Assembly: GCA_001801305.1 (NCBI GenBank)
Contig: MGXH01000080.1
Span: forward strand, 1 to 38,053
Length of the DNA: 38,053 nucleotides
Source of the DNA: Gammaproteobacteria bacterium GWE2_42_36
Lineage (GTDB): Bacteria; Pseudomonadota; Gammaproteobacteria; UBA12402
Direction of reading: 5' to 3'
Part shown: positions 6,001 to 30,557 of the stretch, piece by piece
How positions within the stretch are numbered: the first letter of the stretch is position 1
How the letters are laid out: every line of letters begins with the position of its first letter
Position numbers and translations under genes: made by a program
Notes under the pieces: generated by a model
Seen by the model: the letters and a program-made list of their open reading frames with translations, nothing else
What the model was told of the DNA's origin: nothing
Database searches by the model: none

Positions 6001-9000
6001 GTTTTCAATCGATGCGGTGAGACCATAAGGATTTTGTGCATTCCAGTTCGTTATCGACAAACCACTTAATTGTAGCGTGCTAGATAGATCGGTTAAAACA
6101 CCATTATTCGCATAAATATCCGCCATGACATAATGGCTAATTATTTGTCCGGTTTTAAAATTCGGTGGTGTTGCGGTGGCATCATGGTTGATAACGGAGG
6201 GTAACTGTGGCGCGCCAATATTCAAATGATAAACAGCATAGGAAGTCGAGATGCCCTTGTTATTGACGGCAAAAACCTGGATCAATCGATTGGTCAGTGG
6301 CTGTAGATCCGCTGGAATATTGCCCACAAGATGGCCTTCGGCATCCACCGATAAACCGTAGGTTTGAGTTACATTCAGGGTGGGATCTTTTGCATCTTTT
6401 AAGAGGTAGCCGCTAATGGGTCCACTTATTGATGGCAGTGGATTATCAAAATGCGTGCTCACGTCGATCGATGTAAACGGGTCTGTGGGTAAATAGGTAG
6501 TATCTTCGCCACCCAAATCTGGTGAAGTGTTCACTTGCGGAGGGCCAGCAATTTTTAATAAAAATGTTTGCGGGGTTGCGATGTCGCCGTAAGTGTTTTT
6601 AAACCCGCTGATGGTTAGGCCGACTTCGGATAAAGTGACTGTCGATAAATTATTGCTTGTGAGCTGTAAAGTCGCGTTCGTATAGCCATTGAGAGGAGTT
6701 GATAAGAGATTTTGAAACAATGGTTTAACGCGGCTCGTGTTAGCTGATTGTCCCCATAGGATCGATGCGGTGAGATGATAAGGATTGCTGCTGTTCCATT
6801 CTGCTAAAGAAGCGCCATTAATTTGAATGGCGGCATTTTGATCGAGCGATCCATCGCCTGATGAAATAATCGCTGCATTATAATTCAAGGGCTGTCCCGC
6901 TTCAAAATGATCGACATCATGGATCTGGATCGTCGGAGGTATGGCGGCTCTAATTTGTAAATGATAAACGGCCGCATCGGTTGAAAGGCCGACGGCATTT
7001 CTAGCTTGCACCTGAATATCTGTTGTGCCAATCGGCGCTGTGTTTTTCAGCGTACCAGTTAATTCGCCTTGTCCATTCACCGATAAACCGAATTTATTTT
7101 CGACATCCTGTTTCCCATTTTCGCTTAAGACAAAGCTTGAGATATTGCCGCTATAATTCGGCATGGGATTGTTAAAGCGATCGGCCAGAGGACCAATAGG
7201 TGTTGAGGGTGAAAAAGGTTGACCTTGTCGATAAACGATATCTTGACCGCCTAAATCCGATGCGGCTGTTTTAACGAAAGGAGCGCCGGTGATGATGAGC
7301 GAATAAGTTTGCGGTGTTGTTTGGCTTTTGCCGAGTGTATTTTGAACGCCGCTGATGGTTAGCGTTTCTGGCGCTAAAGTGGGGTTTATTAGCGTATTCG
7401 ATTGTAGATTGATGTAAGCGGTTGTGGGATGCGTGTCATTGTCATATGTAATATTGGTTGTTAATCCATATTGTGTTTGCCAATGGGTTGAGGGTGAGGA
7501 AGAAACTTGAATGGAATTTTTTACTAATTCTCCATCTCCGGCAGTAATCGTTGCGATACGTTCGTTGATGTTACTTTGTCCTTGGGTGAACGCTGTGGTT
7601 GTGGGTGTGATTTGAATGCTTGGTATAGCGGTGGATTGAATGTTAAGCGCATAAGTGGCGTAGGTGTTGGATGTGCCGATATCATTAGCGACGTGTATTT
7701 GAATGATAGCGGGATGACCGGGTTGAGTGGCGGGGGCATTCGGTAAAATGACGCCTTGTAAATTTCCTTGATGATCGACCGATAGACCGTATGTCGCGCT
7801 TACGTCGATACCAGTTTCTCCATCAATCGACAATTTGAAAGTGGTTGGATCTGTTTTAATGTCGCCGCTTTTTGTGGGATTGTTAAATCGATTGTTTGCT
7901 CCGCTCGTTAAAACATTAACGGGAATGAACGGCGAGCCTTGTTTGTAAGTTATATTTTCGCCGCCTAAATTTTGATATGGCGGGTTGATGCTTGGCGGTG
8001 CGGCGATCGCTAATGTAAAACTTTGTGGCTGAGCTTGTACTTTTCCGTATGTGTTTTTAACGCCGCTGAGCGTGAGCATTGTATTATCGTTTGGAAAAGT
8101 CGGTTGTGCTCCAGCGTCATTGCTTTTTAATGTGATTGTCGCGAGGGTAGGATGATCATTATTATCGTAAGTGATCTCGGTGTGTACGCCATGGGCATCA
8201 TCTGTCCAGCTATTCGCCGGGATACCGTTAATTAACAGGGTATTTTTTTGTAATTCCCCATCGCCGGCTTTGATTGTCGCCAGCGTGTAATCGATGGCAT
8301 TACCCTGAATGAAATAATCATTTTGATTGATTGAAACGTGCGGGTCGTTGGTGGGGAGAATCGTTAAATTATAAGTAGCCGCAATCGTTGACTCGCCGAG
8401 TGCATTCGATGCGTAGATGTTAAGCGTCGTTGTTCCTATGGGCGCATTGCTTGGGATCATTCCGATTAAATTGCCATTGTCATCAATTGCGAGCCCGTCG
8501 CTTGTAGGCGCATCTAATCTAAAATGCGTGATCGGGCCGCTGTCGGTTGGGTTGTTAAAATACAATGCGAGATAGGTCATGGCAATAAATTCTTCGCCTT
8601 GTTTAAAACTGCCCGCGCCTAAATTATTTTTAACTGTCGGAATCCCGGCGACATTTAACGTAAAATGGGCAGGGCTAGATTGCGATAATCCATGGCTATT
8701 TTGTAATCCGGTGATTGATAAAATTTTTGGCGATAAGGTGGCATCGCTGACCTGATTGCTTTGTAATAATAATTCCGCTGACGTGGCATTGGTGTTTTGA
8801 AGGACAGCGTGCAAACCGTGTTCGCTCCAACTTTGATACGGCACGTTGTTAATTTGTAATTGGCTGACATCGAGATCGCCTTCGCCGGATTGCAGCGTCG
8901 CAATGGCTATTGGAGAAACGGATTTGCCTTCGACAAATGTTTGTGATGGCGCCGACGAAACGATTGTGTTCGGTGCGAGTGTTGCTGAAATCGTGAGCTG

Positions 9001-25439: not shown

Positions 25440-25485
25440 ATCTGATCATAGATTTTCTTTCTGTGATCAGATTTTTCTTTTTCTC
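25440..25485 (+). terminator. Rho-independent terminator of the ferredoxin gene
   Basis: The stem atctgatca (25440-25448) pairs with tgatcagat (25464-25472) and is followed by tttttctttttctc. Confidence 0.75.
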
Positions 25486-25635
25486 ATTTTTATCAAATTG
25501 TTATCTGCCATTTTAAAGGGTATGACAATCCGGTTTTAGCCCTTTGTTGTTTAAATAAAAATCCTAATAAACCGAGATGATGAATTTTTCAATTCCAACT
25601 CCGACCCAACCTGTTGAAAAAAAGATTCCACAATT

Positions 25636-26018
25636 AACCTGATTTCGGGATAAGAAAGCAGGTCATTTGGACCGCGATTGGATTGACCTTGTTTGTTTTC
25701 GCGAAAATTGAGGAGGGCCCCGAGCACCGAAGTGAGATAGCGGCAAATGAATGGAATTCATTTGAGCGCGCCAAAGAGTTTGTTGCGACGAATAGGTAGC
25801 AACAAACGACCAGCAGGGATGCTGGGCTAGAGGGATTAGTCATGGATGACTTGTTTTGAAAGACGCGTTATCGAACAAGGTGCGCAGGGTTCCGTTTTTT
25901 TCGGCTGCTCTCTGGATCCCGCGGTCAAGCCGCGGGATGACAAAGCCCGACTCATGAGCGAAAATAAACTAAGGCCAACCAATCTCTTGTTTGTCTTCTG
26001 TTATCCCGAACTCAGGTT
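25636..26018 (+). mobile_element. MITE-like non-autonomous element, long copy (~383 bp), with terminal inverted repeats and a REP-like internal palindrome
   Basis: The left end is aacctgatttcgggataag. The reverse complement of the right end is aacctgagttcgggataac, giving 17/18 identity over the first 18 nt. Internal stems are gtttgttgc/gcaacaaac, ccagca/tgctgg and cccgcgg/ccgcggg. No credible coding capacity is present. It is related to the copy at 29155-29316. Confidence 0.65.
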
Positions 26019-26142
26019 TTTATATCATCACGACCGTGGTGAATAGTTATCTATTTTTTTGATTTAATACTGCTATTTTTTATTTAAGGTCGGTATGATT
26101 CTAGAAATAGGATCAACCGACGATATAAAAAGGAGACAAGAA

Positions 26143-27498
26143 ATGCACCTTACTTTTCTTGGAGCAACGGAGACTGTGACGGGTTCTCGCTATTTACTGA
26201 ATATTCACGGAAAAAAGATACTGATTGATTGTGGCTTATTTCAAGGACTCAAATCATTGCGCGAACGAAACTGGATCAAGTTTCCAGTCGATCCTGCTAC
26301 GATAGATGCTGTTTTATTAACACACGCGCATTTAGATCACTGTGGTTATTTACCCTTATTTATCAAAGAGGGATTTCAGCAGACGATTTATTGCACGCAT
26401 GCGACACGTGATTTATGTGGCATTGTGTTGGCTGATAGCGGGCACCTTCAAGAAGAAGAAGCACAATACGCGAATAAACATGATTATTCTAAACATAAAC
26501 CGGCGTTGCCTTTATATACCGAGCAAGACGCTATTGACGCGATGAAATATTTTCGAGGCGTTGATATGGGTAAAAAATTCAAATTGTTTAACGAACCTGT
26601 TGTTCAGTTTAAACGTGCCGGACATATTATTGGGGCTGCTTCGGTTTTTATTCAGTCCAAAGAAGGGTCGATTTTATTTAGTGGAGATTTAGGTCGGTTA
26701 ACAGATCCCATCATGAAACCGCCGATGTTAACGGCTTGTGCAGATTATTTGGTGCTCGAGTCGACATACGGAGATCGACAGCATCCTCAAACGAATCCGC
26801 AGGAGAAAATGCGCGAAGTAATCAATCAAACAGCAGCGAGAGGAGGGACGATTATTATCCCCGCTTTTACTATTGGTCGTACGCAAACGTTACTGTATTA
26901 TTTACACCAATTGAGAGCGGAACAAGCCATTCCGTCGATCCCTATTTTTCTCGATAGTCCGATGGCCATTAAAGTGACCAATTTATTTTGCCATTATGCT
27001 TATCTGACGCAATTAAGCGCGCGTTTCGCACGGCAGATTTGTTCCATTGCGCAATTTGTGCAAACGCCGGAAGAGTCTAAAATCATCGATCAGAAAAACA
27101 TGCCAAAAATTATTATTTCTGCGAGTGGCATGCTGACGGGTGGACGTGTATTGCATCATTTAAAGGCCTTTGGGCCAGATGATCGTAATACAATTTTATT
27201 GACGGGCTATCAGGCGGCTGGCACGCGTGGGGCAAGATTGTTGGCAGGAGAACAAGAAATTAAAATGTTGGGAAAAATGGTGCCCATTCGTGCGCAGGTT
27301 GAAAATATGACCAATTTATCGGCACATGCCGATTATGAAGAAGTATTGACTTGGCTGTCTCATTTTAAGCGCCCGCCACGTAAAGTGTTTATCACACATG
27401 GGGAATCCTCATCGGCTTTAGCGTTGAAATCTAAAATTGAAGAACGATTTGGCTGGTCTTGTGTTGTGCCCAGTTATTTACAAGAGGAAGTCTTATGA
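26143..27498 (+). CDS. beta-CASP family metallo-beta-lactamase-fold RNA/DNA hydrolase (CPSF/RNase J-like)
   Basis: All catalytic motifs are present: HAHLDH, GHIIGAA, FSGDLG, ESTYGD (motif A), VLHHL (motif B) and SAHADY (motif C). I prefer the ATG 26143 start (MHLTFLGATETVTGS), which has AGGAG 7 nt upstream. The ORF track starts at 26095. Confidence 0.88.
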   Translation: MHLTFLGATETVTGSRYLLNIHGKKILIDCGLFQGLKSLRERNWIKFPVDPATIDAVLLTHAHLDHCGYLPLFIKEGFQQTIYCTHATRDLCGIVLADSGHLQEEEAQYANKHDYSKHKPALPLYTEQDAIDAMKYFRGVDMGKKFKLFNEPVVQFKRAGHIIGAASVFIQSKEGSILFSGDLGRLTDPIMKPPMLTACADYLVLESTYGDRQHPQTNPQEKMREVINQTAARGGTIIIPAFTIGRTQTLLYYLHQLRAEQAIPSIPIFLDSPMAIKVTNLFCHYAYLTQLSARFARQICSIAQFVQTPEESKIIDQKNMPKIIISASGMLTGGRVLHHLKAFGPDDRNTILLTGYQAAGTRGARLLAGEQEIKMLGKMVPIRAQVENMTNLSAHADYEEVLTWLSHFKRPPRKVFITHGESSSALALKSKIEERFGWSCVVPSYLQEEVL

Positions 27499-29147
27499 CT
27501 CCCCATCAGACTGAAGTAGAGTCTATTGCACCGGACCGTTGGGTGGATCGCGAATCAATGACGAAAAACCCAGTAGATTATATTGAAACTCAGACGACGG
27601 GTGAACCGAGAAAAACAAAAAGCGGTACGATAAAATGTGAGAAAGGTATTCACTTAAAGATAAAAAGGCTGGGTATCAATACCTATAAAGAAGCGGTCAT
27701 TTACCTGCATGAAGATTGTGAAATTTGTCGATCTGAAGGATGGGCAGCTCAGGCCCGTGTTCAAGTGACGAAGCTTCATCAAAGTATTATTGCGACGGTC
27801 AATACGGTTAAGTCGCCTTTACTAAAATCCGATGAGGCCGGGTTATCAGAATATGCTTTTCAGCTGTTGGGCGCAGAAGAAAATGAAGAGATTCAATTAT
27901 CACATCCTGCGCCGCTGCATTCCCTGCATACGATTCATGACAAAATTTTCAATCGTCAGTTCACTGAACAAGGATTGAAAGAAATCATTCAAGATGTAGT
28001 CGCGGGCCGATTATCCGATATTCATATCGCCTCTTTTTTAACGGCGTGTGCTGACGACCGTTTGTCTTCTACGGAAATTATTGATTTAACAAAAGCGATG
28101 GTGGTTACTGGAGATACTTTGAGTTGGCCATCAGAACTGGTGGTTGATAAGCATTGTATTGGTGGCGTGCCCGGCAATCGAACGACGTTGATTGTCGTGC
28201 CAATTGTGGCAGCTTATGGATTGACGATTCCTAAAACCTCATCTCGTGCGATCACTTCGGCAGCCGGCACTGCAGATACCATGGAAGTGTTTGCACCCGT
28301 TGAATTAACGGTTGCGCAGATGCGTCAGGTTGTCGAAAAAGAGCAAGGTTGTATTGTATGGGGCGGCGCGATGAATTTGAGTCCTGCGGATGATCTTTTA
28401 ATTCCCGTAGAACACGTATTGAATTTGGATGCTATGGGCCAAATGATTGCCTCGATTTTATCGAAGAAAATTTCAGCGGGATCGAAGCAGATCGTGTTGG
28501 ACGTGCCGATCGGCGAGACAGCGAAAATTAGAAATCAAGCCGAACTGCGCCAACTTAAGGTGCTCTTTGAATCGGTTGCCAGTGCGCTGAATATTCAAAT
28601 CAAAATTGTTGAGACGAATGGTACACAGCCGATTGGGCGCGGTATTGGTCCTGCGCTGGAAGCCAGAGATGCTTTGGCTATTTTAGAGAACCGATTGGAT
28701 GTACCGCAAGATTTGAGGGAAAATGCTTTATTAATCGCAGGGAATTTATTGGAGTTTTCATCGCAGGTCAAAGCAGGGACCGGCAAACAACTCGCGGAAG
28801 ATATTTTAGTCAGCGGTCGCGCATGGAAGAAATTTCAAGCGATTTGTGATGGACAGGGCGGGTTGCGTGATATTCCTAAAGCACCGTATCGGGCGATTTA
28901 TGAAGCATCGATGAGCGGACGGGTTGTCATGATGAATAATTATAATCTAGCGCGACTAGCGAAATTAGCTGGAGCGCCGAAAGCAAAAGCAGCCGGTGTT
29001 GATTTATTTGTTAAAGCTGGCGATTATGTGACTCGAGGGCAACCACTTTTTGCGATTCATGCACAAAGCGAAGGCGAACTTGCCTATGCGCGTTCCTCCA
29101 TTGGTAACATAGGAACGCTACTTAAACTCGAGAAAGTGGATAGGTGA
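27495..29147 (+). CDS. AMP phosphorylase-like / 'putative thymidine phosphorylase' family protein (TIGR02645-type, with extra N-terminal domain)
   Basis: DKHCIGGVPGNRTTLIVVPIVAAYGLTIPKTSSRAITSAAGTADTMEVF matches the archaeal AMP-phosphorylase-type signature rather than the DeoA sequence KHSTGGVGD. An N-terminal ~150-aa extension precedes the helical domain. ATG 27495 overlaps the upstream TGA as ATGA, and the SD AGAGGAA lies at 27483-27489. Confidence 0.85.
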   Translation: MTPHQTEVESIAPDRWVDRESMTKNPVDYIETQTTGEPRKTKSGTIKCEKGIHLKIKRLGINTYKEAVIYLHEDCEICRSEGWAAQARVQVTKLHQSIIATVNTVKSPLLKSDEAGLSEYAFQLLGAEENEEIQLSHPAPLHSLHTIHDKIFNRQFTEQGLKEIIQDVVAGRLSDIHIASFLTACADDRLSSTEIIDLTKAMVVTGDTLSWPSELVVDKHCIGGVPGNRTTLIVVPIVAAYGLTIPKTSSRAITSAAGTADTMEVFAPVELTVAQMRQVVEKEQGCIVWGGAMNLSPADDLLIPVEHVLNLDAMGQMIASILSKKISAGSKQIVLDVPIGETAKIRNQAELRQLKVLFESVASALNIQIKIVETNGTQPIGRGIGPALEARDALAILENRLDVPQDLRENALLIAGNLLEFSSQVKAGTGKQLAEDILVSGRAWKKFQAICDGQGGLRDIPKAPYRAIYEASMSGRVVMMNNYNLARLAKLAGAPKAKAAGVDLFVKAGDYVTRGQPLFAIHAQSEGELAYARSSIGNIGTLLKLEKVDR

Positions 29148-29154
29148 TTTTAAT

Positions 29155-29316
29155 ACCCTGAGTGCGGGATAAGAAAGCATGCTGTTTGGACTGATTTCTG
29201 GCTCCCGCGGGATGACGGGGGAGAAAGCGTAAGATGACGCAGCCCGATGTATAAGCGAAAACAATTAGGTCGATTCAATATTCCGCTTTTGTTCTGGTTA
29301 ACTCAGACGCAGGTTT
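29155..29316 (+). mobile_element. MITE-like element, short (internally deleted) copy of the 25636-26018 family
   Basis: The left end accctgagtgcgggataagaaagca matches the long copy's left end. The internal ctcccgcgggatgac and agcccga...ataagcgaaaa match the long copy's right half. The right end is ...ttctggttaactcagacgcaggttt. TAATA occurs on both flanks (29151-29155 and 29316-29320). Confidence 0.6.
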
Positions 29317-29342
29317 AATAAAAAAATAGTAGGAAATTGACC

Positions 29343-30557
29343 ATGGCTATGGAACCTCTGATTCAGCCACCGATAGCGACAAAAAAAATCTCTAAGAATG
29401 TGATCATGCTAGGCATCGTTAGTTTATTTAATGACTTTGCTTCAGAGATGGTTTATCCCATCATTCCCATTTTTCTAGTCTCTTTTTTAGGTGTGCCCGT
29501 GAGCATGATCGGACTGATTGAAGGCATTGCCGAGTCTACCTCGAGTTTGTTAAAAATATTTTCAGGTTGGTTTTCTGACCAGTTTGGTGTTCGCAAACCT
29601 TTTTTGATCGTAGGGTACAGCTTTTCGACTGTAGCTAAATTATTGATTGGTTTAGCAACAGGCTGGCCGATGGCGTTATGGGGTCGATTTATCGATCGAT
29701 TTGGAAAAGGATTACGATCCTCTCCACGAGACGCGCTGATTACGGAAAGTTCACAACGTCAATATCGAGGCCGTTCCTTTGGATTTCATCAAGGGATGGA
29801 TACCGTGGGCGCTGTCTTGGGTCCACTTTCAGCCGTTTTATTGTTAAAGATTTTTCCGCATAATTTACGCATTATATTTTTTATTGCTTTTATTCCGGGA
29901 TTGATAGGCATTTTGATCTTGTTATGTTTTGTAAAAGAGACGACGAAAAAAATAATCCCAAAAACACAACAGTCGTTATGGCAGGGTTTGCGTTATTTAA
30001 AATTGAACACGTCGTTTAAAATTTTCCTATTGATTAGCGTTATTTTTGCGATAGGCAATAGTTCAGACATGTTTTTGATTTTGAAATCAAAAAGTGTAGG
30101 GATGAGTTTTGCATTCACTATTTTGGCCTATGCTTTATTTAATTTCATTTATGCTTTGGCCTCCTATCCGGCTGGTATGTTAAGTGATCGCATCGGGCCC
30201 AGACGAACACTATGCTTCGGCTTTTTATTATTTTCGATTGTGTATTTTTTATTTGGGATGGTGCACACGGCTCATTGGATTTGGATTTTGTTTCCCTTGT
30301 ATGGTGTTTATATGGCGCAAAATGATGGTGTGAGTCGCGCTTACGTATCAGTTTTAGTGCCACCGGAAAACACTGCAACAGTATTTGGCGTTTATCAAAC
30401 GGCTGTAGGTGTTTGTTCTTTTTTCGCCTCACTCATAGCGGGTATTTTGTGGTCAAAAGTTAGTCCTGCAGCCCCTTTTGTTTTTGGTAGCGTGATGTCA
30501 CTGGTTGCCGTGTTTTTATTTATGGGACTCCACTTTTTCATAGACTCCGAGCAATAG
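29343..30557 (+). CDS. MFS-type transporter (12 predicted TM segments)
   Basis: The protein is hydrophobic and polytopic. The loop 2-3 motif GWFSDQFGVRKP and a second-half motif GMLSDRIGPRR are typical of the MFS. ATG 29343 has AGGAAA 6 nt upstream. The ORF track starts at TTG 29337. Confidence 0.85.
   Translation: MAMEPLIQPPIATKKISKNVIMLGIVSLFNDFASEMVYPIIPIFLVSFLGVPVSMIGLIEGIAESTSSLLKIFSGWFSDQFGVRKPFLIVGYSFSTVAKLLIGLATGWPMALWGRFIDRFGKGLRSSPRDALITESSQRQYRGRSFGFHQGMDTVGAVLGPLSAVLLLKIFPHNLRIIFFIAFIPGLIGILILLCFVKETTKKIIPKTQQSLWQGLRYLKLNTSFKIFLLISVIFAIGNSSDMFLILKSKSVGMSFAFTILAYALFNFIYALASYPAGMLSDRIGPRRTLCFGFLLFSIVYFLFGMVHTAHWIWILFPLYGVYMAQNDGVSRAYVSVLVPPENTATVFGVYQTAVGVCSFFASLIAGILWSKVSPAAPFVFGSVMSLVAVFLFMGLHFFIDSEQ

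Follow-up and report, generated by a model that had tools for sequence, protein, structure and literature searches.

A chromosomal two-gene operon for a β-CASP nuclease and an AMP-phosphorylase-like enzyme as a putative reduced form of a mobile proteobacterial RNA-degrading module

Why would a bacterium couple the gene for a β-CASP nuclease to that for an enzyme resembling AMP phosphorylase, and what might become of the product? To our knowledge, biochemical work on AMP (NMP) phosphorylase has been confined to the archaeal enzyme, which supplies a RuBisCO pathway. The locus raising this question lies in a 38,053-nt stretch of DNA (the window) from the 1.4-Mb, 90% complete genome of an uncultured gammaproteobacterium. 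A first-pass annotation had read the two genes as a fixed pair degrading RNA to free bases and ribose-1,5-bisphosphate (R15P). The intact RNA-type nuclease, the AMP-phosphorylase type of the second enzyme and the conserved gene overlap on which this interpretation was built all held up in our analysis, whereas the fixed pairing and the mostly archaeal nature of the phosphorylase branch did not. The features of the locus are compiled in Table 1.

Table 1. Features of the nuclease–phosphorylase locus, with positions in the window.
Feature	Position	Strand	Basis and remarks
MITE-like dispersed repeat, upstream of the operon (context, not module)	25632..26022		genome-wide copies
Conserved leader or promoter region	26058..26142	+	includes AGGAG 26131-26135; aligns with L136
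β-CASP metallo-β-lactamase nuclease	26143..27498	+	451 aa, TTHA0252 type; Pfam, PDB match, invariant motifs
ATGA overlap of phosphorylase ATG and nuclease TGA	27495..27498	+	sequence; TTATGAC junction same in L136
Phosphorylase, PRK04350/TIGR02645 family, bacterial clade II, AMP-phosphorylase-like	27495..29147	+	550 aa; HMMs, 4GA5 match, Foldseek
N-terminal tail of phosphorylase, lineage-specific, aa 1-49	27495..27641	+	predicted disordered, pLDDT 27-37
N-terminal β-domain of phosphorylase, aa 53-136	27651..27902	+	HMM alignments, model, Foldseek; shared with archaeal AMP phosphorylase, absent from TP/PyNP
38-nt fragment like the repeat's left end, just 3' of the phosphorylase stop	29154..29191		82% identity to 25635-25672

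The upstream gene starts 7 nt behind the AGGAG motif of the leader, and its orthologues begin at the same methionine. Its product matched the Pfam families Beta-Casp (PF10996; 1.6e-37, 129 bits), RMMBL (PF07521; 7e-18, 65 bits) and Lactamase_B. The catalytic motifs, annotated as intact in the first pass, were indeed all present: the seven comprise MBL motifs 1–4 and β-CASP motifs A, B and C, and the residues D29, H61xH63xD65H66, H161, D182, E206, H395 and H419 were invariant in an alignment of 19 orthologues. Motif C is represented by H419 within THGE; this position is reportedly occupied by His in the RNA enzymes and by Val in the Artemis/SNM1 group, and the protein, which also carries the RMMBL domain, belongs with the RNA-acting subgroup. 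The best PDB match, at 3e-77 over the full length, was the 5'-3' exoribonuclease TTHA0252, while the named β-CASP equivalogs stayed below their NCBIfam cut-offs (RNase J, TIGR00649, 22 vs. 400; aCPSF1, TIGR03675, 276 vs. 580; Cas14, NF045584, 389 vs. 800). By analogy with TTHA0252, the enzyme is probably a 5'-3' exoribonuclease releasing 5'-NMPs. A whole-genome search returned a single copy of a β-CASP gene of this type.

The product of the downstream gene scored above the cut-offs of NF003338 (659 vs. 434) and TIGR02645 (578 vs. 434.6) with residues 53–536, and far below those of the TP/PyNP models (TIGR02643, 143 vs. 570.7; TIGR02644, 207 vs. 409), in agreement with its earlier assignment to the AMP-phosphorylase rather than the DeoA/PyNP branch. 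The HMMs place the protein in the TIGR02645 family, but not in the AMP phosphorylase equivalog TIGR03327, which aligned to residues 54–534 with 482.4 bits, its cut-off being 535. A PDB search retrieved the AMP phosphorylase of Thermococcus kodakarensis (Tk-AMPpase, 4GA5) at 2e-100; the E-values of the matches identifying the two proteins of the operon ranged from 1e-37 to 1e-198 and thus lie well outside random similarity. Every letter of the segment SSRAITSAAGTAD is the same in 4GA5, and DKHCIGGVPGN equals the archaeal DVHSIGGVPGN at 9 of 11 positions. The active-site segments side with AMPpase and not with PyNP/TP, GGVPGN standing against GGV-GD and KTSSRAITSAAGTAD against KMSGRGLGHTGGTID; TIPKTSSRAITSAAGTAD is identical in the window protein and AMPpase, and GGVPGN is common to both. 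The core (aa 201–334) aligned without gaps to Tk-AMPpase at 57% identity, and with gaps to PyNP at 38%. The structure model contains strands at aa 53–136 with pLDDT values of 80–95, and a Foldseek search with it returned 4GA5_A as best match (TM 0.89) over 501 columns including the N-terminal domain, compared to about 430 columns for PyNP/TP. The additional N-terminal domain proposed previously is consequently borne out by the TIGR03327 alignment, the β-domain of the model and the Foldseek match. The tail preceding it, noted before as about 50 aa long, exists as an open frame of 49 codons and is variable: in an 81%-identical phosphorylase orthologue (P0002) it has 25 aa fewer and cannot be aligned, and homologues with about 502 aa lack it altogether. 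T, E and K are frequent in the tail, which, as judged by eye, has no signal peptide or transmembrane character.

Both open reading frames and their ATGA overlap were confirmed at the positions first annotated, the sequence AGAGGAA precedes the phosphorylase ATG by 5 nt, and the overlap is conserved, being 4 nt or 1 nt long in linked relatives. An apparent fusion of the two genes to a 954-aa ORF in one genome (G277/L007) was dismissed, as its junction CAATTNGTAATG contains an ambiguous base and is otherwise an ordinary TAATG overlap. The leader is the sole part of the 712-nt intergenic region upstream of the operon which aligns with that of the closest relative, locus L136 (80% over 89 nt). It gave no clear match in a sigma-70 scan, and promoter and terminator scans did not exceed the number of sites obtained with shuffled sequence. 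Between the phosphorylase gene and the gene for an MFS transporter following at its 3' side, no terminator was recognized. Published data on Bradyrhizobium prompted us to look for control by FNR/FixK, but the 650 nt preceding the nuclease gene contained no TTGAT-N4-ATCAA site with up to two mismatches; the nearest similar site is at 25483, beside the terminator of a ferredoxin gene.

The locus is chromosomal and flanked by yhdP and secA, an arrangement common to L136. The MITE-like repeat upstream of the operon belongs to a family with 51 HSPs on 32 contigs, 13 of which are at least 100 nt long with 93–98% identity, and is missing from the corresponding intergenic region of L136. Because the family is scattered over 32 contigs, absent at this position in L136, and the locus is syntenic, we regard the element as an insertion beside the operon and not as its vehicle. 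A composite element bracketed by two MITEs was likewise rejected, since its supposed upstream bracket is a single member of this scattered family and the downstream one a mere fragment of 38 nt, for which the rest of the genome gave no more than weak matches.

How firmly the two genes belong together was surveyed in 300 sampled genomes of the class and on plasmids. Phosphorylase genes occurred in 59 of the 300 genomes, i.e. about a fifth, and on 120 plasmids, some of them conjugative and derived from Legionella and rhizobia. A family this common in Proteobacteria and on plasmids does not fit the "mostly archaeal" branch assumed at first. Next to the phosphorylase gene, the sampled loci most often carry a gene for a PRPP-synthase (Prs) paralogue (NF005537/PRK07199), located immediately 3' in 30 of 41 such loci. 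The nuclease gene is directly upstream in 43 of the 53 loci with clade II phosphorylases, but in none of the 23 clade I loci, and mapping this linkage on the phosphorylase tree required 6 changes, compared to 24.9 expected with shuffled labels. The window phosphorylase falls into clade II on the tree and has its β-CASP gene directly 5' with a tight junction. Phosphorylase genes were also enriched in genomes containing nuclease orthologues (14 of 21 vs. 45 of 279; Fisher p = 1e-6).

The survey thus establishes a real linkage within clade II, but the linkage is absent from clade I, and the nuclease orthologue was also found alone, without conserved neighbours. A fixed 1:1 pairing, as initially postulated, is not compatible with the observed frequencies: on the phosphorylase side, no more than 10 of 62 loci, corresponding to 8 of 59 genomes, have the two genes linked, and on the side of the nuclease orthologue 33 of 80 do. 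Linked and unlinked copies are interspersed on the nuclease tree, requiring 20 changes. Because its orthologues are so often unlinked or solitary and intermixed on the tree, the nuclease is not a dedicated partner of the phosphorylase.

The Prs paralogue (NF005537) was found neither at the locus nor anywhere else in the genome, whose sole Prs-like sequence is the housekeeping Prs on contig C10, with 24–30% identity. It is missing from the L136 locus as well, so that the window and its closest relative represent a rare two-gene form of the module. The lack of genes for R15P isomerase and RuBisCO, already noted for the window, extends to the whole 90% complete genome, in which searches for RuBisCO (PF00016) and an R15P isomerase of the IF-2B family (PF01008) gave no match while the controls were positive. 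The genome search also failed to provide a PhnN, which had been envisaged as a candidate for the downstream step. Without RuBisCO, R15P isomerase, PhnN and the Prs paralogue, R15P would have no known taker in this organism; genes for Apt, Hpt, Upp and the housekeeping Prs are present. Compared with L136, dN/dS amounted to 0.092 for the nuclease and 0.096 for the phosphorylase gene (0.09–0.10 for the two-gene form, at dS values of about 0.9–1.2), similar to the neighbouring yhdP and MFS genes. Both genes are therefore under purifying selection despite the lost Prs paralogue, and the retention of the pair in a 1.4-Mb genome indicates that it is functional on its own.

From these data, we tentatively regard the chromosomal two-gene operon as a pared-down variant of a proteobacterial module which is widespread and horizontally mobile and combines a β-CASP nuclease with an AMP-phosphorylase-like enzyme and a paralogue of PRPP synthase. 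By this reading, to which we give slightly less than an even chance, RNA would be converted via NMPs to bases and R15P. The route itself is plausible, and as a putative pathway it is our best hypothesis. The TTHA0252-type nuclease would break RNA or oligoribonucleotides into 5'-NMPs, which the co-translated phosphorylase would convert with phosphate to free bases and R15P. Apt, Hpt and Upp could recapture the bases with PRPP provided by the housekeeping Prs. The sugar bisphosphate is presumably dealt with by the dedicated Prs paralogue in most relatives, and among the other carriers this protein is the most probable consumer of R15P. Because this paralogue has been lost here, R15P would have to go to another enzyme in this lineage, e.g. 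a phosphatase or a mutase yielding ribose-5-phosphate. The gene identities, intact motifs, overlap conservation, clade-specific linkage, purifying selection and lack of the known R15P sinks are established by the data; the RNase activity, the NMP substrate, the R15P product and the fate of this product are inferred. A further-reaching version appears rather doubtful to us, namely that nuclease and phosphorylase suffice as the smallest working unit for a bacterial conversion of RNA to bases and R15P. In this lineage, R15P would then either be consumed by a kind of enzyme not yet linked to it, different from RuBisCO with isomerase, PhnN and the Prs paralogue, or serve as a cofactor or regulator instead of a carbon source.

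Several other explanations have to be weighed against the proposed RNA-to-R15P route. The phosphorylase may be an ordinary nucleoside phosphorylase of the PyNP/TP type, forming ribose-1-phosphate, with a general RNA-turnover nuclease merely encoded on the same transcript. The NCBI name of the NF003338 family is indeed "thymidine phosphorylase", the AMP phosphorylase equivalog was missed, nuclease orthologues are frequently solitary, and a genome without an R15P consumer would be better suited to ribose-1-phosphate as product. We nevertheless consider this unlikely, given the scores far under the TP/PyNP cut-offs, the AMPpase-type active-site motifs and N-terminal domain, and the conservation of the start/stop overlap together with a linkage across the clade, which exceed a chance neighbourhood. 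Somewhat less probable still is that the phosphorylase works synthetically as a TrpD-like, PRPP- or R15P-linked transferase, linking an activated ribose phosphate with a base or a different acceptor. This ribose phosphate would come from the adjacent Prs paralogue in most relatives and from the housekeeping Prs here. The AMPpase reaction is reversible, the Prs paralogue is the direct 3' neighbour in most of the sampled loci, and the fold family includes PRPP-binding anthranilate phosphoribosyltransferases (Foldseek ranks 20–50). However, the likeness to TrpD is remote (TIGR01245, 40 bits; TM about 0.45), the coupling to a nuclease would be left unexplained, and the present lineage manages without the paralogue.

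We regard it as very improbable that the pair is directed against one particular RNA or signalling nucleotide, destroying it in stress, defence or regulation rather than serving bulk salvage. While relatives occur on plasmids beside genes for metal resistance and are regulated by stress or low oxygen, and β-CASP enzymes have been recruited to defence, as in the case of Cas14 with its sub-threshold match, neither protein matches any PADLOC model, the window has no CRISPR or defence context, and the locus sits stably in the chromosome between the same genes as in L136. The pair was accordingly discarded as a candidate defence system. The idea that the genes are a decaying, non-functional remnant of the three-gene module in a reduced genome is disfavoured and close to implausible: the usual third gene is lost and a MITE-like element has inserted upstream, but both ORFs are intact, their catalytic residues invariant, the overlap and the 85-nt leader conserved, and the low dN/dS values were obtained against a relative which likewise has no third gene.

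If the proposed conversion of RNA via NMPs to R15P is correct, bacteria hold an undescribed entry point into nucleotide catabolism. The close bacterial sister family of archaeal AMP phosphorylase is widespread, and we found no publication reporting which substrate it uses, what it forms or why its genes accompany those for an RNase and an additional PRPP synthase, consistent with the initial statement that this function is uncharacterized in bacteria. The only published data retrieved by our literature search concern expression in Bradyrhizobium; it yielded no biochemical work on any bacterial representative and nothing on a β-CASP enzyme together with an AMP or thymidine phosphorylase or on the three-gene set. 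The window adds the fact that the nuclease–phosphorylase pair is retained after loss of the Prs paralogue, which makes the fate of the product a separate question. Should the pair indeed be a minimal working unit, this naturally reduced two-gene form would be the cleanest system for finding the missing R15P step.

Among the known systems, the AMP phosphorylase of T. kodakarensis (4GA4/4GA5/4GA6, TIGR03327), which belongs to the archaeal AMP (pentose bisphosphate) pathway, shares its four-part architecture, one identical key motif and the closely related fold and core described above with the window phosphorylase. The latter differs from it in its bacterial origin, its score below the equivalog cut-off, its disordered tail and its nuclease partner gene, and the genome lacks the R15P isomerase and the form III or II/III RuBisCO of the archaeal/CPR pathway. 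DeoA and Pdp belong to the same superfamily and have the same core fold (TM about 0.8), but no N-terminal domain and other active-site motifs, and their HMM cut-offs are far from being reached. The window nuclease resembles TTHA0252 of Thermus thermophilus (2DKF, 3IEK-3IEM) in being a minimal two-domain β-CASP protein without KH or C-terminal domains and in its motifs, at a distant identity of roughly 40% as estimated by eye. TTHA0252 is reported to be a 5'-3' exo-RNase and described as a global mRNA-decay enzyme, and no phosphorylase partner has been reported for it (PMC4229858). The three-gene module also occurs in a different gene order, as in the operon bll3117-bll3116-bll3115 of Bradyrhizobium diazoefficiens, in which bll3115 was likened to the nuclease by its description as an MBL-fold hydrolase. 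In this distant relative, the operon is expressed and induced by microoxia, and its products are annotated as a thymidine phosphorylase family protein, a ribose-phosphate pyrophosphokinase and an MBL-fold hydrolase (PMC6515984, PMC9104804). Unlike the three-gene module, the window and the L136 locus have no Prs paralogue, and the window locus is without a FixK/FNR box and resides on the chromosome instead of a plasmid or island. Its nuclease and phosphorylase are nevertheless orthologous to those of the module, e.g. on plasmid pH3-D-14 of Legionella pneumophila, with 55–60% identity, the same gene order and the same tight junction.

The locus represents a common bacterial module, annotated but biochemically unstudied, in a derived two-gene form: the genes for a beta-CASP nuclease and an AMP-phosphorylase-like protein stand alone, without the third gene coding for a paralogue of ribose-phosphate diphosphokinase (Prs). 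The two long plus-strand ORFs and their ATGA overlap were located exactly as in the first-pass annotation. The ATG listed below is the best nuclease start because it follows an AGGAG motif and the orthologues start there as well, this methionine being common to 18 of 18 orthologues in alignment A1.

Features of the nuclease-phosphorylase locus; L136 is the locus of the closest relative
Feature	Position	Strand	Remarks
MITE-like dispersed repeat, ~390 nt	25632-26022		Insertion upstream of nuclease gene
Weak sigma-70-like match	25937-25965		Inside MITE-like repeat
Conserved leader, 85 nt	26058-26142		80% identity to L136 4561-4648; sole conserved intergenic stretch
Nuclease ORF	26143-27498	+	ATG 26143; TGA 27496-27498; AGGAG at 26131-26135; orthologue starts
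Phosphorylase ORF	27495-29147	+	ATG 27495; ATGA overlap with nuclease stop; AGAGGAA 5 nt upstream
Fragment resembling left end of MITE-like repeat, 38 nt	29154-29191		
MFS transporter gene	29337-30557		189 nt after phosphorylase gene
Metallophos gene and 54-aa ORF	L136 9328-10797		Between MFS gene and secA

The phosphorylase passed the profiles NF003338 (PRK04350; score 659, cut-off 434) and TIGR02645 (578, cut-off 434.6) and failed those for the AMP phosphorylase equivalog (TIGR03327; 482, cut-off 535), PyNP (TIGR02644; 207, cut-off 409) and TP (TIGR02643; 143, cut-off 570.7), which places it outside the formal curated AMP-phosphorylase equivalog. Its best PDB sequences were 4GA5 and 4GA4, two constructs of the Thermococcus kodakarensis AMP phosphorylase (2e-100), and PyNP and TP came next, with E-values no better than about 1e-37. 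Across the catalytic core (aa 201-334), the alignment with the T. kodakarensis enzyme was gap-free at 57% identity, both proteins containing an identical TIPKTSSRAITSAAGTAD segment and GGVPGN, compared to 38% identity and several gaps for Bacillus subtilis PyNP, which carries GGV-GD and KMSGRGLGHTGGTID at the matching sites. An AlphaFold model from a 33-sequence alignment (mean pLDDT 84, pTM 0.83) was confident from residue 50 onward and contained an N-terminal beta-domain at residues 53-136. Foldseek ranked 4GA5_A first (E 2e-51, TM 0.89, 501 aligned columns), followed by PyNP and TP (about 430 columns, TM about 0.8) and, far below these, TrpD. Because HMM scores, motifs and fold ranking agree, the protein belongs to the AMP-phosphorylase branch and not to DeoA, as the first-pass annotation had proposed. 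Its description of this branch as mostly archaeal does not hold, since a database search gave over 8000 protein matches below E = 1e-20, with only bacterial sequences (55-81% identity) among the best 120.

Residues 1-49 of the phosphorylase reached pLDDT values of just 27-37. The corresponding tail in L136, a groundwater-metagenome contig, is 25 residues shorter and cannot be aligned with it, and homologues of about 502 aa have no such tail. It is a variable and probably disordered extension, and it holds the phosphorylase start codon on the nuclease stop codon; neither these comparisons nor the pLDDT values gave any sign of a separate function.

The nuclease contains the Pfam domains Beta-Casp (1.6e-37), RMMBL (7e-18) and Lactamase_B, and reached none of the named NCBIfam equivalogs (Cas14, 389 vs. 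800; aCPSF1, 276 vs. 580; RNase J, 22 vs. 400). Its best solved relative is TTHA0252 of Thermus thermophilus, a reported 5'-3' exo-RNase (PMC4229858), which matched over the full length (3e-77). The catalytic motifs, already read as intact from the sequence, are all present, with D29, H61xH63xD65H66, H161, D182, E206, H395 and H419 being invariant across 19 orthologues. Among beta-CASP proteins, a His in motif C is the state of RNA enzymes, an assignment reportedly made by Callebaut and colleagues in 2002.

Of 300 genomes sampled evenly across the host's class, 59 (from 56 of 271 genera) encoded a phosphorylase family member over the cut-off; the gene also occurs on 120 plasmids, 48 of them conjugative and five from Legionella. 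In 40 loci fetched around these phosphorylases, the most frequent neighbour was the Prs paralogue, a protein of ~295 aa that passes NF005537/PRK07199 for a ribose-phosphate diphosphokinase subfamily (396 vs. 322 bits); its gene came next after that of the phosphorylase in 30 of 41 loci. The nuclease gene was upstream and adjacent in 10 phosphorylase loci from 8 genomes, with overlaps of 4 nt or 1 nt. Close nuclease orthologues (at least 48% identity) occurred in 21 of the 300 genomes, 14 of which also carried the phosphorylase, compared to 45 of the 279 others (odds ratio 10, Fisher p = 1e-6), and no conserved neighbours were found around the unlinked nuclease copies in this sample. A wider scan with alignment A1, covering one genome per species, gave 80 best loci from alpha-, beta- and gammaproteobacteria, with the phosphorylase gene directly after that of the nuclease in 33 of them, mostly followed by the Prs paralogue. 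Nuclease orthologues 51-58% identical to ours were present in MAGs labelled Streptomycetaceae, Enterobacteriaceae and Mycobacterium, one of which (L062) also holds a clade II phosphorylase (see below); these labels likely reflect binning or labelling errors, or transfers.

The phosphorylase tree split with full support into two clades, with nuclease linkage in 0 of 23 rows of clade I and in 43 of 53 rows of clade II, which includes the enzyme studied here. Linkage required 6 changes on this tree, compared to 24.9 with shuffled labels, and 20 changes on the nuclease tree, where well-supported branches force at least 10. For the phosphorylase, linkage is thus an old trait common to the clade, and for the nuclease it is facultative; the "fixed 1:1 pairing" of the first-pass annotation is wrong, since linked and unlinked nuclease copies are interspersed. 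Near-identical clade II phosphorylases (branch lengths about 0.002) from Achromobacter ruhlandii, a Burkholderiales MAG and a Variovorax strain indicate that the module moved horizontally very recently. An apparent 954-aa nuclease-phosphorylase fusion (locus L007, contig G277:C1, around 7850-7870) rests on one ambiguous base (N) in what is otherwise a TAATG overlap; it is probably an assembly artefact and was left out of the evidence. In nuclease-free clade I loci (e.g., L017, L023, L036 and L041), the phosphorylase and Prs paralogue genes are often followed by genes for a DUF1614 membrane protein (PF07758) and a short-chain dehydrogenase-like protein. Copper or heavy-metal P-type ATPase genes adjoin the plasmid modules of Legionella pneumophila (pH3-D-14) and Agrobacterium tumefaciens, and in the latter, a 789-aa protein annotated as xylulose 5-phosphate 3-epimerase separates the Prs paralogue from the nuclease.

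At our locus, the phosphorylase gene is followed by an MFS transporter gene instead of the Prs paralogue, and the 1.37-Mb, 90%-complete genome contains no Prs-like sequence beyond a housekeeping copy, which shares 24-30% identity with the paralogue. L136, whose phosphorylase and nuclease are 81% and 86% identical to ours, has the two genes in the same setting (yhdP, ferredoxin, nuclease, phosphorylase, MFS, and secA further along) with the same ATGA junction, and also lacks the paralogue. Between the two loci, the nuclease has a dN/dS of 0.092 and the phosphorylase one of 0.096 (dS about 0.9-1.2), similar to the flanking yhdP (0.098) and MFS (0.105) genes; selection therefore maintains the pair without the third gene. 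The two other sampled genomes of the same family retain all three genes at different genomic places. No terminator-like site separates the phosphorylase and MFS genes, which could be co-transcribed; among the relatives examined, only L136 has an MFS gene beside the module. L136 additionally contains genes for a 489-aa Metallophos (calcineurin-like phosphoesterase) protein and a 54-aa ORF, both missing here, where just 217 nt separate MFS from secA. The host, an uncultured gammaproteobacterium, lacks a close cultured relative; no database entry exceeds 73% identity to its SecA (nearest named match, MAG "Coxiella sp. DG_40", 66%).

Upstream, the MITE-like repeat (51 BLAST segments on 32 of 85 contigs, 13 of at least 100 nt at 93-98% identity) is missing from the same site in L136. 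The conserved leader includes TTGATTTAATA...TGCTA.TTTTTATT and may hold a promoter or operator; the native promoter probably lies there. No FNR/FixK box was found upstream of the nuclease gene.

The best-supported reading of the pair is still the two-step salvage proposed initially, in which a TTHA0252-type 5'-3' exoRNase would release 5'-NMPs and the AMP-phosphorylase-like enzyme from the same message would phosphorolyse them to base and ribose-1,5-bisphosphate (R15P). The observation behind it stands, with protein identities, intact motifs, conserved coupling, clade-wide linkage and selection; the interpretation has partial support, with both activities and the product predicted. The genome encodes Prs and adenine, hypoxanthine-guanine and uracil PRTases, so released bases can be recaptured. 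The weakest point of this reading, above all in this genome, is that none of the known R15P takers searched for was found: RuBisCO and IF-2B-family proteins (R15P isomerase) are missing from the 90%-complete genome, as is PhnN, whose single 35-bit match reads as a guanylate kinase from its motifs.

This gap raises two rival explanations: the phosphorylase may be a nucleoside-specific enzyme yielding ribose-1-phosphate, or a transferase that works in the synthetic direction. For a role of the pair in defence or signalling, no support emerged, with no PADLOC match for either protein, and a decaying remnant is contradicted by the low dN/dS values of both genes against L136. The bacterial use of an archaeal-type NMP phosphorylase is a real and directly testable question.

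We found no paper joining beta-CASP enzymes to AMP or thymidine phosphorylase, and, among the papers retrieved, none that assays a bacterial member, CPR RuBisCO studies aside. A related module is expressed in Bradyrhizobium diazoefficiens. Its operon bll3117-bll3116-bll3115, with genes for a thymidine phosphorylase family protein, a ribose-phosphate pyrophosphokinase and an MBL-fold hydrolase, carries a FixK2 box at -74, and microoxia raises both its transcript and its protein levels (PMC6515984; PMC9104804). Its gene order differs from that of our locus, and its MBL-fold hydrolase is a candidate orthologue of the nuclease.
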